Positions 46,097 to 49,645 of a DNA stretch of 64,000 bases are shown one piece after another. A model generated the notes under the pieces. The model was not told the DNA's origin. It ran no database searches and worked only from the letters and a program-made list of their open reading frames with translations. The stretch is from an uncultured Burkholderiaceae bacterium (lineage in GTDB: Bacteria; Pseudomonadota; Gammaproteobacteria; Burkholderiales; Burkholderiaceae_D): positions 5,644 to 69,643 of the forward strand of contig CAYWNE010000005.1 in assembly GCA_964459555.1 (NCBI GenBank), given 5' to 3'. Within the stretch, counting starts at the first letter, position 1, and every line of letters begins with the position of its first letter. Both the position numbers and the translations under genes were made by a program.

Positions 46097-49000
46097 TTAA
46101 TACGACGCTGCGCCGATCGCCGAGACTTCTTTGCCATCACTAATCCAGTGTTCATTATTGGCCGAGAAGTAGGTGATCATGACTTGCAATTGATGCTCAC
46201 GCAATTTCTTATCAAATGAATGCGCCGCTTCAGGATCGCTGATGGAGATCGCCGTTAAACTTTCGCCTGGTAGGATTTTTTGGCCGACCAGCGGCAAGCT
46301 CTTCCAAATCAAATGATCATTCGGACCTAACACGGCTTCAAGAGCCGTCTTGGCATCGGCGACAGCATGACCATCAAGTAGGATTTCAATTTTCTTGATG
46401 ATGCCATAACCGGTGCCACGATTGCGAATCACCCAACGGAAACCAGCTTCATCAATCTCAATCGACCATCCCAAAATCGGGAAACCCAAGCCTTGCCGTT
46501 GTGGTAGAGCGCGTTGGCGTTGAGGTAGTTCACGCTGCGAACGCAAATACAAGTAACCGGAAATGACGCCCGCGAGAATGATGCCGATGGAAATGATGAA
46601 TGGCAGATTGCCTTTTGAAAGACCCGTCAGATAAGGATCGTAGAGCAGCAGCAAAATAAAGATCAAAATCGGCGGGACGATATTGAAAGCCAGCACCCAG
46701 AGGAAGTAGCGCTTAATAAAGTTCTGTACCTCGCAATACTTGGCAAACAACACGGCGATCAACACAGCGATCAAAAAGAAGACCGCTAAGGCAATTTGTA
46801 AATACCAGCGCTCGACGCAGGCAAAACGCGCAATTGCTGAGGGTAGTTTGTCTGCTTTGTTGGACTCGCGGAAGTTACGCAGAATACAGAGAGCGATTTG
46901 TTGTCCACGCACACAAGGCTCGGCCATATTCAAAGTCGGCTTGGCGATGTTTTCAAAGTCCGGTGCCCATAGCCCCATGCCACCGAAATTGTCACTGGCA
47001 TACACCACGTCATCTTCGAGCTGTTGCCAGTTGCGATTGTCGAATTGCATCACAGGTATCACACTACGTAGGAATTCAGCACGGGCGTTGCCATGTAAGC
47101 CTTGCTCGTTTTCGATGTTGAGGCGTAGCTGCTTTTTGGAATCGTTGCTCGGTTCATTGAGCAGAACTAAAAAGTAAGTTTCGCTGACATCAGGATCGCC
47201 AGCACTGGCGCGACTCTTCATTTCGTTTTTCAAGCGAATCAAATTCGGCAGGGCGAAGGCACCAGTGCGTCCTTCACTATCGTCACTCAATACCGATTGG
47301 GTCATGACCACGTTGATGCCAAGCTTTTCCTTCCGCAAAGTCTTGTGCAGATTCATGAAGAATTCATTGAACAAGGTGGTTGAATCGATGTCGGTCGGAT
47401 AGTTCTGGAAATAGAGCGTGATGCCATCGCCACGTGTGACTGGCGCAGCGGCGCCGAGGCTCAACACAGGACGCATCTTCGACGCTGTATCCGTCAAACG
47501 TGTATGCAAAAGATTCTTGATATTGCTGACGAGTTTGGAGAGGATGGCCTTCTTATTGTCGCGCGAATAGCGCTTCCAATCACCATTCCAATCATTCTTT
47601 TGGATCACCCAATCTACTTTCGAGTTGTACTGATGCGCTAAGCGAATAAATTGATTTTGTTCGGCCGAGCCATCTTTGATATCAAACGGTGCGGCACCAA
47701 GACGGAAATCACCGACGTTGTCGACGGTGAGGCCGAAGTAAGCAACGCGATTGAGCACATGGAAATTCATGGTCTGCGTGGCTTTTTGATTATTCCAATA
47801 CGGATAGAAGGCGTAAGACACCCCAGCGAAATCATCAAGTGCACAGCCGCAATCGCCACCTTTCAAAGTGATTGGTGCGATCTCGTCGGGCATCGCTTTC
47901 TTCGCCATATTCTCAACCGGTAAGGCCAGATAACTGAGATAAATCTCTTCAATCAGACGACGGCTTTCTTGGAACGAGGCTTTGTCGCACTGGCTGACTT
48001 GCAAGCGCAGGCGTTTCAATTCTGAGAAAGTTTTGGCCGCATCAAAATCACGAGATACTCGGCCATCCGCACTCTGTGGTATCACATTGCTGAGATCTTT
48101 TGCCAGCAAATCAAATTCCTCGTCGGGCATACGCAGCCCAGCAACATAGAGATTGCTGGTCGGTGAATTCATTTTACAAGCGCCTATGCCCATGATCATT
48201 TTCGAAATGGCGGCACTACGTAACAAACTGACTTCCGGATAACTGACGTCCTTGATTTGCCCGAGTAAGCGCACCAGAACCGCAGGAATCCCAGTGTTTT
48301 GGATATTGCCCTTGAGCTGCGCTTTGATATTGCTGATCGATTGCTCAGTTAAATGAATATTGTCGAACACTCGCGACGCATCGGCCACAATCTCTCGTTC
48401 ATCTTCGCTGAGATCCAAGCTAGCGCTGCTGATTTTCTCAGTGATGAAGTCGTCGAATAATTCCCTTGTCTTAAAGTATTGCGTTCCTTGCACGCGTAAT
48501 TCGTCGATGATAGCCGCGGGGAATTCACTGGTGTCTTTCAGGCGCTTGAGCGCAGATTCGTCAACCAAGTAGCCATCGAAGTCCCCAGCGTAGCGTTCGA
48601 TCAGTGGCCAGATCTGGCTGACGATATGTTCACGCCCCCCCATGGCTTTGCTGACGGCCACACGCAGTGCTTCGCTGGAATTGAATTCCTTATCTTTGAG
48701 GGTGGAGAGGATCTGTACGATTTGGTCCTTGCCTCCGAGGATATCTAAATCACCTTGTGTGAGTTTGAAATAATAAAAGGCACTTTCGTCGAAGTTTGAA
48801 CGCGGTGCCATGCGCGGCGCCGTCTTACGTTGGCCACGGAAACGATTGACCAAATCGATCAATTCTTTGTCGTTACCTTCTCTGCGAACTCTGAAATCTT
48901 GCAGCTTTTGCTTTTCAGGCTGCATGAAATCCCAAGCTTCGAATTCTGGGCTCATCAAAATCGTGAGTTCATCTTTGTGTCCCGCAGCGAAGCGCGCAAT

Positions 49001-49645
49001 GCGATCAACATTCTTCGCCAAACCGTCTGCGTAATCACCTTCGGCCTGTACTTTAAAACTGAAGGAAAAACGTTGTAACCACGAGAGCGTAATCGGGCCG
49101 ACGATGCCGTCATTGAGTGGCTCACCCTTAAGGGCATAGTCGTGTTGCCAGTCAGGCAGCAGCTGGTAGATGCCGGCTAGCTGTTTCTGCATTTTCAGCA
49201 CGGTCTCTTTGCTGAGATCCTTGAAGTGCTCTTGTTTGATATTGCGGTTGTAGCCAACGATATTGACCGTGCGACTTGACTTGTTGGCGGGGCTATCGGT
49301 CTTACTGATGCTGCTCGCAGTCGATGTCGCATTGGCGTTTTTCGACGGGCTAGTGTTTGTAGCTGAAGCGCTGGCGGCCGCCGTTCCAGTCACTGGTAGT
49401 TTTGCCTGCGCAGGTATGCCCAATTGCGATTTGACCTGGTTGGTCGTGCCTACGACGGATTTTTCTAATTGTTGGATCTTTGGACGCGGATCGAGCTTGG
49501 TTTGTGCCTGCTTGGCCGAGGCGCCGTTCGCCACTGTGCTGATCTCGATCTGTGCTGCCAAGCCCAGCATAGGCAGCGCCAAGGCGCACGCCGCCACCAG
49601 TAGGCTTGGTTGAAATCTGAGTTGAGAGTGTAGAGACTTATTCAC
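46097..49645 (-). CDS. large envelope protein, last gene of the eCIS-like operon: Sec signal, low-complexity linker, PG-binding-like segment, large periplasmic domain, 3 TM helices, C-terminal domain of about 130 aa
   Basis: 1182 aa. Its GTG start overlaps the ATPase stop (GTGA). Signal: LLVAACALALPMLGLAA. S/T/A/N-rich linker: ASASATNTSPSKNANATSTASSISK. LNDGIVGPITLSWLQRF resembles a PG_binding_1 motif. TM helices: LQIALAVFFLIAVLIAVLFA, YFLWVLAFNIVPPILIFILLLLY, LPFIISIGIILAGVISGYLYL. The function is unknown. Confidence 0.6.
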   Translation of the reverse strand: MNKSLHSQLRFQPSLLVAACALALPMLGLAAQIEISTVANGASAKQAQTKLDPRPKIQQLEKSVVGTTNQVKSQLGIPAQAKLPVTGTAAASASATNTSPSKNANATSTASSISKTDSPANKSSRTVNIVGYNRNIKQEHFKDLSKETVLKMQKQLAGIYQLLPDWQHDYALKGEPLNDGIVGPITLSWLQRFSFSFKVQAEGDYADGLAKNVDRIARFAAGHKDELTILMSPEFEAWDFMQPEKQKLQDFRVRREGNDKELIDLVNRFRGQRKTAPRMAPRSNFDESAFYYFKLTQGDLDILGGKDQIVQILSTLKDKEFNSSEALRVAVSKAMGGREHIVSQIWPLIERYAGDFDGYLVDESALKRLKDTSEFPAAIIDELRVQGTQYFKTRELFDDFITEKISSASLDLSEDEREIVADASRVFDNIHLTEQSISNIKAQLKGNIQNTGIPAVLVRLLGQIKDVSYPEVSLLRSAAISKMIMGIGACKMNSPTSNLYVAGLRMPDEEFDLLAKDLSNVIPQSADGRVSRDFDAAKTFSELKRLRLQVSQCDKASFQESRRLIEEIYLSYLALPVENMAKKAMPDEIAPITLKGGDCGCALDDFAGVSYAFYPYWNNQKATQTMNFHVLNRVAYFGLTVDNVGDFRLGAAPFDIKDGSAEQNQFIRLAHQYNSKVDWVIQKNDWNGDWKRYSRDNKKAILSKLVSNIKNLLHTRLTDTASKMRPVLSLGAAAPVTRGDGITLYFQNYPTDIDSTTLFNEFFMNLHKTLRKEKLGINVVMTQSVLSDDSEGRTGAFALPNLIRLKNEMKSRASAGDPDVSETYFLVLLNEPSNDSKKQLRLNIENEQGLHGNARAEFLRSVIPVMQFDNRNWQQLEDDVVYASDNFGGMGLWAPDFENIAKPTLNMAEPCVRGQQIALCILRNFRESNKADKLPSAIARFACVERWYLQIALAVFFLIAVLIAVLFAKYCEVQNFIKRYFLWVLAFNIVPPILIFILLLLYDPYLTGLSKGNLPFIISIGIILAGVISGYLYLRSQRELPQRQRALPQRQGLGFPILGWSIEIDEAGFRWVIRNRGTGYGIIKKIEILLDGHAVADAKTALEAVLGPNDHLIWKSLPLVGQKILPGESLTAISISDPEAAHSFDKKLREHQLQVMITYFSANNEHWISDGKEVSAIGAASY

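Follow-up and report, generated by a model that had tools for sequence, protein, structure and literature searches.

Membrane proteins of known contractile injection systems

Envelope accessories of the T6SS include TssL and TagL, which have peptidoglycan-binding domains, and the wall hydrolases MltE and TagX. These proteins are unrelated to the one described here; what they share with it is a concept, in which a contractile machine is fastened to both inner membrane and cell wall and the wall is remodelled locally. The closest described protein is SalCis20, from the contractile injection system (CIS) of Salmonella enterica subsp. salamae, for which a 2.73 Å cryo-EM structure (PDB 9R9A) appeared as a preprint in June 2025 and in Nature Communications in April 2026 (Ejaz et al., Nat Commun 2026, PMC13266070). 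SalCis20 has a signal peptide that is cleaved at residue 42 and on which membrane localisation depends, a periplasmic SleL-like fold and three TM helices, and forms an integral membrane homodimer, which was purified from membranes of over-expressing E. coli (PMC13266070). Purified particles contain next to none of it, the contacts proposed with SalCis13 and SalCis11 come from prediction, and its role in anchoring is a model (PMC13266070). SalCIS particles are located at the inner membrane, with no release or secretion detected, and SalCIS-type loci are devoid of the TssJLM membrane complex (PMC13266070). In this paper, the sole one on SalCIS-type systems, attachment to the envelope is drawn in the model as a "question mark" (PMC13266070).

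A second precedent comes from the CIS of Streptomyces coelicolor: its membrane adaptor CisA lies outside the particle and can be required for firing (eLife 2025, PMC12237407). Like our target, CisA is a membrane protein whose gene accompanies those of a cytoplasmic CIS; it is absent from the purified particle and has been proposed to bring the particle to the membrane (PMC12237407). However, its topology is opposite to that of the target, it has neither a GH18-like nor a three-TM module, and we detected no homology between the two.

A Cis20-family gene at the end of a CIS operon

The window analysed here, a stretch of 64,000 nucleotides from an uncultured Burkholderiaceae bacterium, contains the following CIS-related features:

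61272..64000, minus strand: Cis11 baseplate protein, truncated where the window ends; top PDB match SalCis11 (9RCE_A, 7e-93)
60451..61275, minus strand: 274-aa protein, conserved by synteny between Cis11 and Cis12
57580..60117, minus strand: Cis12 baseplate protein; top PDB match SalCis12 (9RCE_B, 5e-64)
51001..57576, minus strand: tape measure protein (TMP) of 2191 aa, with a CIS_TMP domain at its C-terminus
49642..50988, minus strand: Cis15 AAA+ ATPase, directly upstream of the target, its stop codon overlapping the target start codon
46097..49645, minus strand: target gene, a complete ORF of 1182 aa with a GTG start and its stop codon at 46097-46099; Cis20-family (SalCis20-like) envelope protein, matching 9R9A
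46043..46076, minus strand: terminator-like hairpin whose stem has 15 bp, located about 20 nt past the target stop codon; a consensus match only

The target is encoded by the minus strand (49645..46097), and the plus strand is full of stops in this interval. Its start codon and the TGA stop of the ATPase gene overlap by 4 bp (GTGA), in agreement with the reading frame and the coupling to the ATPase that had been claimed from the letters alone. The hairpin marks the end of the CIS operon, and the target is its last gene. A family-library search with the 274-aa protein gave no match. The idea that a short Cis11 correlates with a long Cis20 was dropped because the Cis11 reading frame runs open to the window edge, where its full length is not given.

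Searches with Pfam and NCBIfam returned no match, even at E≤10, for the full target protein or four of its sub-segments. Against the PDB, the single sequence matched SalCis20 (9R9A_B) with E=5e-14. Family profiles extended this match, one (A1) to E=8.4e-33 in three stretches and another (A4) to E=8.1e-87 along the full length, covering residues 401-864 plus 42-388 and including the TM region. These matches place the target in the Cis20 family, as the envelope component of a contractile injection system that is SalCIS-like (clade Ib-type). Chance is of no concern, because the family has 775 representatives (50% identity) at E≤1e-3. The gene order TMP, ATPase, Cis20 was kept in all 72 assessable loci, from Burkholderiales (including Oxalobacteraceae), Nitrosomonas and Fibrobacter, and the ATPase lay immediately upstream of the Cis20 homolog in 72/72 loci with upstream sequence. 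Co-occurrence of homologs with the CIS ATPase had been set beforehand as a check, and unlinked homologs as a refutation; every one of the 72 loci showed the linkage, and the reading was not refuted.

Two statements of the sequence-only reading have to be revised. It knew of no described family with such an architecture, but SalCis20 has the same plan, in which a signal peptide and a large GH18/SleL-like domain in the periplasm are followed by three TM helices at the C-terminus. The reading also labelled the locus "eCIS", which is doubtful because the baseplate proteins in the window are closest to those of SalCIS, which is found at the inner membrane and for which release has not been seen. 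Because the Cis20 family is large and strictly syntenic with the ATPase, it could serve as a useful marker for membrane-associated CIS loci that are now labelled "eCIS".

Export, periplasmic barrel and membrane topology

The target shares with SalCis20 a Sec signal peptide, a three-helix segment with DGIVGP(I/T)T, helical modules, a GH18/SleL-like barrel, a C-x-x-R-W motif before TM1, three TM helices, and a CIS operon that also encodes baseplate proteins of SalCis11/12 type. It is longer (1182 aa vs 864 aa), and its S/T-rich low-complexity stretch is N-terminal, whereas that of SalCis20 is internal. The sequence comparison identifies the target as a divergent SalCis20 relative, differing by a lost catalytic residue and an extra cytoplasmic domain. 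Its parts are as follows:

49553..49645, minus strand: Sec-type signal peptide covering about residues 1-31, the predicted cleavage site lying before Q32-I-E-I (hydropathy, charge, conserved junction)
49259..49552, minus strand: disordered S/T/A-rich linker, residues 32-129 (composition; pLDDT <50)
49046..49258, minus strand: conserved three-helix segment with PLNDGIVGPITLSWLQRF, residues 130-200, resembling a peptidoglycan-binding domain (putative)
47876..49045, minus strand: periplasmic helical region, residues 201-590 (AF2 secondary structure), with three beta-alpha-alpha modules at about 289-495
46856..47875, minus strand: GH18-like (beta/alpha)8 barrel, residues 591-930 (Foldseek matches 5JH8, 4S3K (SleL), 1NAR and 3BXW; YdhD alignment)
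47405..47428, minus strand: degenerate GH18 beta4 motif D740-G-I-T-L-Y-F-Q747, in which Gln takes the place of the catalytic Glu
46739..46810, minus strand: TM helix 1, residues 946-969 (hydropathy, AF2), with the conserved C943-x-x-R-W just before it
46640..46705, minus strand: TM helix 2, residues 981-1002 (hydropathy, AF2)
46532..46606, minus strand: TM helix 3, residues 1014-1038 (hydropathy, AF2)
46493..46531, minus strand: basic juxtamembrane linker ELPQRQRALPQRQ, residues 1039-1051, in which P1041 corresponds to the C-terminal Pro of most family members
46100..46492, minus strand: C-terminal Ig-like beta-sandwich domain, residues 1052-1182 (AF2), cytoplasmic by topology and present in one subclade only

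A heuristic reading of hydropathy and charge placed K3 and R10 in the n-region of the signal peptide, followed by a 17-residue hydrophobic core, LLVAACALALPMLGLAA. The A|Q-I-E-I junction of the target follows an A|Q(I/V)E pattern conserved in relatives. These features, with the cleavage of SalCis20 as precedent, bear out the Sec signal peptide predicted earlier. The VAAC stretch looks like a lipobox, but relatives do not conserve Cys20 and the hydrophobic core extends beyond it, so a lipoprotein signal was rejected. The S/T/A-rich linker noticed earlier was likewise recovered, residues 35-130 being rich in S, A and T and residues 1-129 predicted to be disordered.

The three-helix segment, within which the conserved LNDGIVGPITLSWLQRF stretch lies, has an L-x-DG-x-x-G-x-x-T...F motif and invariant D179, G183, T186, W189 and R192. 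Its domain profile aligned to SalCis20 residues 66-120 with E=2.5e-10, and SalCis20 (9R9A) was the sole match of this profile in the PDB, the next ones ('DG.pGPiT' in class IV transaminases) being spurious. The full family profile gave a weak match to peptidoglycan-binding domains (E about 0.1, the PG-binding domain of SltB3), and relatives appear in some database sources under the name 'Peptidoglycan binding-like domain', but Pfam PG_binding_1 (PF01471) matched neither the target nor any of 35 family members. The peptidoglycan-binding call made earlier for this segment could not be confirmed, because the dedicated profile matched SalCis20 alone.

Between this segment and the barrel, the helical region gave a profile match to the insertion domain of Desulfonema magnum Cas7-11 (E=3.7e-13). 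Within residues 289-495, repeat 1 and repeat 3 were significantly similar by sequence (z=4.5); internal sequence repeats were rejected there, as this was the only significant pair of three.

An AF2 model of the target (pLDDT 74, from a shallow alignment of 35 sequences) bore out the GH18-type barrel that had been suspected, Foldseek matching it to chitinase 5JH8 at 7e-5 and to SleL 4S3K at 2e-4, with the non-catalytic GH18 proteins narbonin (1NAR) and SI-CLP (3BXW) also among the matches. The (beta/alpha)8 fold is that of SleL/YaaH (4S3J, 4S3K), YdhD (3CZ8) and GH18 chitinases, and the beta4 motif can be aligned with GGVTIDFE of YdhD. In this alignment Q747 falls on the catalytic Glu, confirming the absence of DxxDxDxE claimed earlier; the motif reads DGITLYFQ, and that of the family 'DGVTLyFd'. 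The two assisting Asp positions of GH18 are Tyr and Thr. Unlike active GH18 enzymes, the target has Y-F-Q in place of the catalytic D-x-E and a barrel fused to membrane helices, and unlike SalCis20, which keeps two carboxylates (DGITLDID), it has none. Pfam Glyco_hydro_18 (PF00704) found no match in the target even at E≤10, and none in 35 relatives. With its catalytic residues lost and no such match, the target resembles narbonin and SI-CLP. The catalytic-acid position is Q, P or A in all 32 relatives carrying the C-terminal domain, and D or E in 53 of 81 diverse members. Pocket-type residues W617, D678, E831 and W893 are conserved, D678 invariantly and E831 and W893 nearly so.

Because the catalytic-acid position is Gln, canonical GH18 hydrolysis by the target is unlikely. 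Given this substitution and the Tyr and Thr in place of the assisting Asp residues, the sequence and the fold model suggest that the barrel most likely binds glycans as a pseudo-enzyme of the chi-lectin or narbonin kind instead of hydrolysing them. A non-canonical catalytic arrangement may nevertheless exist, given invariant D678 and near-invariant E831.

Three hydropathy peaks (3.01, 2.58 and 2.20) coincide with AF2 helices and align to the TM region of SalCis20, in support of the three TM helices of the earlier description. The TM1-TM2 loop has three basic residues and one acidic, and the tail past TM3 has five basic and one acidic, in keeping with the positive-inside rule.

SalCis20 stops eight residues past TM3 (...RKEGDKP), whereas the target adds a PQRQ linker and a 127-aa Ig-like cytoplasmic domain. 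The duplicated linker that had been noticed (LPQRQRA/LPQRQG; LPQRQRALPQRQG) is present and conserved across the clade. The C-terminal domain, put earlier at about 130 aa, was confirmed by folding residues 1052-1178 separately (AF2, pLDDT 81.5). It is restricted to the Undibacterium/Duganella/Janthinobacterium/Solimicrobium subclade, and in most loci its conservation at least equals that of the rest of the protein. Foldseek searches of PDB and BFVD found generic Ig-like sandwiches only (best E 9e-3 and 2e-3, TM ≤0.42), Pfam gave nothing significant, a domain profile run against 5.8 billion proteins recovered seven short fragments only, and tblastn found no free-standing copy in loci without the fusion. 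Most Cis20 family members have 5-12 cytoplasmic residues past TM3, ending in a conserved Pro, and because of this the sequences indicate that a large docking domain is not needed for the core function of the family. The possibility that the terminal Pro is the trace of an overlapping downstream signal was rejected, since family members use each of the three stop codons and show no conservation in the DNA that follows.

Proposed anchoring of the particle and alternative roles

Taken together, sequence, fold model and homology to SalCis20 lead us to favour, with some confidence, a non-catalytic anchor or adaptor that would span the inner membrane. Sec would export the protein and the signal peptide would be removed, leaving about 900 residues in the periplasm and three C-terminal helices holding the protein in the inner membrane. 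Judging from sequence and fold, the periplasmic part would comprise a three-helix module that perhaps binds peptidoglycan, helical repeat modules and the GH18/SleL-like barrel; past TM3, the conserved basic PQRQ linker would lead to the Ig-like domain of 127 aa in the cytoplasm. By its likeness to SalCis20, the protein is probably a dimer. It would engage the cell wall on the outside and present a docking surface on the inside for the assembled particle, at the baseplate periphery or a fibre-like protein.

The same parts can be read in other ways. A large periplasmic region of ligand-binding type, joined to a cytoplasmic domain through a juxtamembrane linker that is conserved, would also suit an envelope sensor or firing trigger, in which the periplasmic part would read the status of the wall or envelope and the TM helices would signal to the cytoplasmic domain, licensing sheath contraction, as in the precedent of CisA, a non-particle membrane protein that can be required for firing (PMC12237407). 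We consider this unlikely: the target has no recognisable signalling domain, the cytoplasmic part of most family members is minimal, and sequence data do not separate sensing from passive anchoring. An active cell-wall hydrolase, opening a local hole in the peptidoglycan for insertion of the CIS or for firing through the envelope, was proposed for the homolog SalCis20, with the part played by MltE in assembling the T6SS as the analogy (PMC13266070). The GH18/SleL-like fold and the apparently maintained pocket of D678, E831 and W893 are consistent with this role. It is nevertheless quite improbable for the target, with Gln for the catalytic acid and Thr and Tyr for the assisting Asp residues, and SalCis20 itself is without demonstrated activity (PMC13266070). 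One third of the family, moreover, has no carboxylate at the catalytic-acid position. An E-to-Q change is a classic inactivating substitution in GH18. That the putative hydrolase site is lost in the target, as it is in roughly one third of the 81 diverse members, argues for binding or scaffolding, not hydrolysis, as the conserved role of the family.

TM helices combined with a wall-hydrolase-like fold, in a gene at the operon end, could likewise point to a role in lysis or release, in which a holin-like TM part and an endolysin-like barrel set extracellular particles free. Such a role is very unlikely: the catalytic acid is missing, SalCIS particles sit at the inner membrane with no release or secretion detected, and over-expression of SalCis20 in E. 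coli was possible, the protein being purified from the membranes (PMC13266070). Delivery of the target as a cargo or effector is effectively refuted. The slot after the ATPase is often held by cargo genes, and DUF4157 (eCIS_core) genes lie at most 10 kb downstream of the Cis20 homolog in about half of related loci, directly after it in several; yet the Sec signal peptide, the three TM helices and the size of 1182 aa speak against a cargo, Cis20 is a core syntenic gene in all loci, and SalCis20 is an integral membrane dimer (PMC13266070). The sequence-only reading had proposed an envelope anchor or release factor, not a payload. Its exclusion of a payload loaded into the tube lumen is upheld by the export signal, the TM helices and the strict linkage to CIS loci; the anchoring and remodelling ideas coincide with those proposed for SalCis20, and release became less likely because the catalytic acid is missing.

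Within the anchor reading, we tentatively suggest a more specific possibility, that Cis20 of the Oxalobacteraceae subclade acts as a single-chain tether, its inactivated GH18 barrel serving as a peptidoglycan lectin on the outside and a newly acquired orphan Ig-like domain docking directly on the CIS baseplate or the conserved 274-aa protein on the inside. In such a tether, the Ig-like domain might conceivably substitute for, or strengthen, the minimal cytoplasmic tail ending in Pro that other family members have. If this were true, the subclade would provide the first tractable soluble handle for mapping the inner-membrane attachment of SalCIS-type systems. The soluble cytoplasmic domain of the subclade lends itself directly to pull-down or co-folding in search of the contact with the CIS.

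The last gene of the CIS operon and its relation to SalCis20

The plus strand of 46097-49645 is stop-rich, and the real gene lies on the minus strand, where its GTG start and the TGA stop of the upstream AAA ATPase gene overlap as GTGA. A terminator-like hairpin with a 15-bp stem lies about 20 nt past its stop codon, followed by a convergent pirin gene, indicating that a minus-strand CIS operon ends with this gene. The genes upstream of it encode, in order, the ATPase, the tape measure protein, Cis12, a 274-aa protein and Cis11, all on the minus strand:

49645..46097, minus strand: Cis20-family gene, GTG start, 1182 aa
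51001-57576, minus strand: tape measure protein (CIS_TMP), 2191 aa
60451-61275, minus strand: 274-aa protein without family assignment, between Cis11 and Cis12
window edge, minus strand: Cis11, interrupted

A profile built from homologs of the 1182-aa protein matched one solved structure strongly, chain B of PDB 9R9A (864 aa; E=8.4e-33), in three stretches that correspond to the N-terminal segment, the barrel and the transmembrane (TM) region. A broader profile of 81 members matched it over essentially its full length (E=8.1e-87), and the window protein as a single sequence gave 5e-14. This structure is SalCis20 of the Salmonella enterica subsp. salamae CIS (SalCIS), which appeared as a preprint in June 2025 and in Nat Commun in 2026 (Ejaz et al., PMC13266070). 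SalCis20 carries a Sec signal sequence that is cleaved at residue 42. Its large periplasmic domain adopts a SleL-like hydrolase fold, it has three TM helices, and it was solved as a homodimer at 2.73 Å (PMC13266070). The statement in the sequence-only reading that no described family has this architecture therefore no longer holds; the window protein is a variant within the recently described SalCis20 kind, from which its architecture is already known. The best solved relatives of the window Cis11 and Cis12 are likewise SalCis11 (7e-93) and SalCis12 (5e-64), which outscore their AlgoCIS, tCIS, PVC and Afp counterparts.

The Cis20 family comprises 775 representatives (50% identity) at E<=1e-3, and 358 at E<=1e-30. 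A genome scan with family-derived peptide patterns, which leaves very distant members unsampled, yielded 72 loci from Undibacterium, Duganella, Janthinobacterium, Massilia, Solimicrobium, Herbaspirillum, Collimonas, Pandoraea, Oxalicibacterium, Nitrosomonas, Rhodocyclaceae and Fibrobacter. When the window CIS proteins were compared by tblastn with these and two loci fetched earlier, the ATPase was found directly upstream of the Cis20 homolog in 72 of the 74 loci, and the tape-measure C-terminus ahead of the ATPase in 71; in both loci lacking an ATPase match the upstream sequence spans less than 310 bp. Wherever the flank was long enough, the genes followed the order Cis11, 274-aa protein, Cis12, tape measure protein, ATPase, Cis20. 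The expected co-occurrence of homologs with CIS ATPases was thus recovered, and none of the loci with enough upstream sequence carries a homolog unlinked to CIS, the observation that would have spoken against the link.

Two neighboring genes deserve mention. With 2191 aa, the tape measure protein is longer than its counterparts in related loci (1526-2091 aa) and very long by CIS standards, which fits the unusually long (~600 nm) particles published for SalCIS. The 274-aa protein is kept from Oxalobacteraceae to Fibrobacter at 36-82% identity (tblastn), and may correspond to the fibre-like SalCis13 or be a different baseplate accessory.

A GH18-like barrel and its altered catalytic site

Hydropathy analysis revealed an N-terminal signal-peptide core, with predicted cleavage just ahead of a conserved Q-I-E-I. 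Strong hydrophobic segments, exactly three, lie close to the C-terminus, and basic residues cluster in the TM1-TM2 loop and past TM3. An AlphaFold2 model based on 35 aligned homologs (pLDDT 74) shows disorder in residues 1-129, which represent the signal peptide and an S/A/T-rich linker. The periplasmic and membrane body is folded and spans residues 130-1038; a flexible linker (1039-1051) then leads to a separate beta-sandwich (1052-1178). Foldseek matched the model to GH18 barrels, including chitinase 5JH8 (7e-5) and SleL 4S3K (2e-4), as well as the non-catalytic narbonin and SI-CLP. These results confirm what had been read from the sequence, namely a signal peptide, an S/T/A-rich linker, three TM helices, a GH18-like barrel, and a PQRQ duplication preceding a separate C-terminal domain.

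The missing GH18 catalytic signature was also confirmed. The beta4 motif, DGxDxDxE in GH18 enzymes, reads D740-G-I-T-L-Y-F-Q747, and the alignment of the family profile with YdhD ('DGVTLyFd' over 'GGVTIDFE', E=0.004) places Q747 on the catalytic Glu. SalCis20 has DGITLDID at this motif, whereas the window protein has DGITLYFQ, and distant members of the Herbaspirillum type read ...FFD or ...LFD. Each of the 33 closest relatives carries Q, P or A at the catalytic-Glu position; among 81 diverse members, 45 have D there, 8 have E and the remainder a non-acidic residue, while 68 have Y or F at the preceding Asp position. Other barrel residues are near-invariant in the same 81 members (D678 in 81, W617 in 79, W893 in 78 and E831 in 64). 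This pattern suggests that the barrel pocket is maintained without canonical catalytic machinery, and that the barrel is most likely a glycan-binding pseudo-enzyme in the clade of the window protein. Judged from these residues, hydrolysis is probably not the conserved function of the Cis20 family, and part of the main value of the window protein is what it implies for the family, that the hydrolase site is dispensable.

A peptidoglycan-binding-like segment had also been proposed; its binding role stays putative. The segment PLNDGIVGPITLSWLQRF is highly conserved and sits in a three-helix region; a Pfam search of 35 relatives gave no PG_binding_1 match, and a dedicated profile of the region found SalCis20 as its sole match in the PDB. 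The broad family profile matched peptidoglycan-binding domains of lytic transglycosylases weakly (E ~0.1).

The periplasmic region also contains helical modules (window 48161-48781, residues ~289-495) with the motif LT..L..L....P..v..L..L....Y.....F. With the family profile these match the Cas7.4 insertion domain of Desulfonema magnum Cas7-11 (PDB 7ZOL_B residues 1065-1256) at E=3.7e-13, a value that drops to E=0.017 with a narrower profile. The insertion subdomains were called unique in the Cas7-11 paper, and the module common to both proteins seems to be uncharacterised.

The C-terminal tail and its added domain

Most Cis20-family members end right past TM3, and profile matches stop at ~982. 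Of the 68 members whose tails reach at most 25 residues past the last hydrophobic segment, 59 have Pro as the last residue; these tails are basic, typically reach 5-12 residues past TM3, and end in ...ARDEQP in Pandoraea and Herbaspirillum. All three stop codons occur and the DNA beyond them is unconserved, so the C-terminal proline appears to be under selection at the protein level. In extended members the Pro is retained and followed by [S/N/Q/K]-R. SalCis20 ends at ...RKEGDKP, whereas the window protein retains the Pro as P1041 (in the region 46520-46531 of the window) and adds the linker QRQRALPQRQG and a 127-residue domain.

The window protein shares this domain with 31 of its 34 homologs. 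Among the 74 loci it occurs in 22, all in the Undibacterium/Duganella/Janthinobacterium/Solimicrobium group; some Undibacterium genomes lack it, as do all more distant ones. Its conservation equals or exceeds that of the remaining protein in most loci. Modelled alone, it folds confidently (pLDDT 81.5, pTM 0.73) into a beta-sandwich with two helices, for which we found no significant structural relative in PDB or BFVD, no Pfam match, and only fragments as sequence relatives. With a signal peptide predicted to be cleaved and three TM helices following, the domain should be cytoplasmic, a placement supported by the charge distribution and the SalCis20 structure. The other main value of the window protein would be this domain as a soluble cytoplasmic handle for finding the contact between membrane and particle.

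Possible roles at the envelope and the slot after the ATPase

The peripheral localisation of SalCis20 depends on its signal peptide, SalCIS bundles adjoin the inner membrane, and release was not detectable (PMC13266070). The published model has SalCis20, SalCis13 and SalCis11 attaching the particle to the inner membrane, possibly with peptidoglycan remodelling; no enzymatic activity of SalCis20 is reported (PMC13266070). The earlier idea that the window protein is an envelope anchor or wall remodeller equals this published hypothesis for its homolog; the sequence-only reading was right in direction, with the function still a proposal. We postulate that the window protein is a dimeric inner-membrane adaptor, whose periplasmic part would engage the wall non-catalytically, and whose cytoplasmic tail and Ig-like domain would contact the assembled particle.

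An active wall hydrolase is made less likely by Q747, and the dead catalytic site, together with the SalCIS data, also counts against a lysis or release factor. It is conceivable that the protein acts as an envelope sensor or firing trigger, analogous in role to CisA, the membrane adaptor of the Streptomyces coelicolor CIS (PMC12237407), a role that sequence data cannot separate from anchoring. Delivered cargo is excluded by topology and core synteny, in accordance with the earlier view that the protein is not a payload.

About half of the related loci have a DUF4157/eCIS_core HExxH gene (SalCgo-like) no more than 10 kb downstream of the Cis20 homolog, and in some Duganella loci it comes directly after. 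No DUF4157 gene was found anywhere in the 64-kb window, or within 10 kb downstream in the closest Undibacterium relatives, indicating that the post-ATPase slot there is filled by this structural gene and that no cargo gene follows; any cargo genes of the window locus must be located past position 64000. The window genes flanking the CIS operon encode pirin, DoxX, a flavodoxin-like protein and LysR. Farther from the locus, and probably unrelated to the Cis20 finding, are two minus-strand genes, encoding a 352-aa protein with bactofilin and FapA-like beta-solenoid matches (35708-36766) and a 950-aa protein with Big_7 Ig domains and an InhA-like MAM domain (32329-35181).
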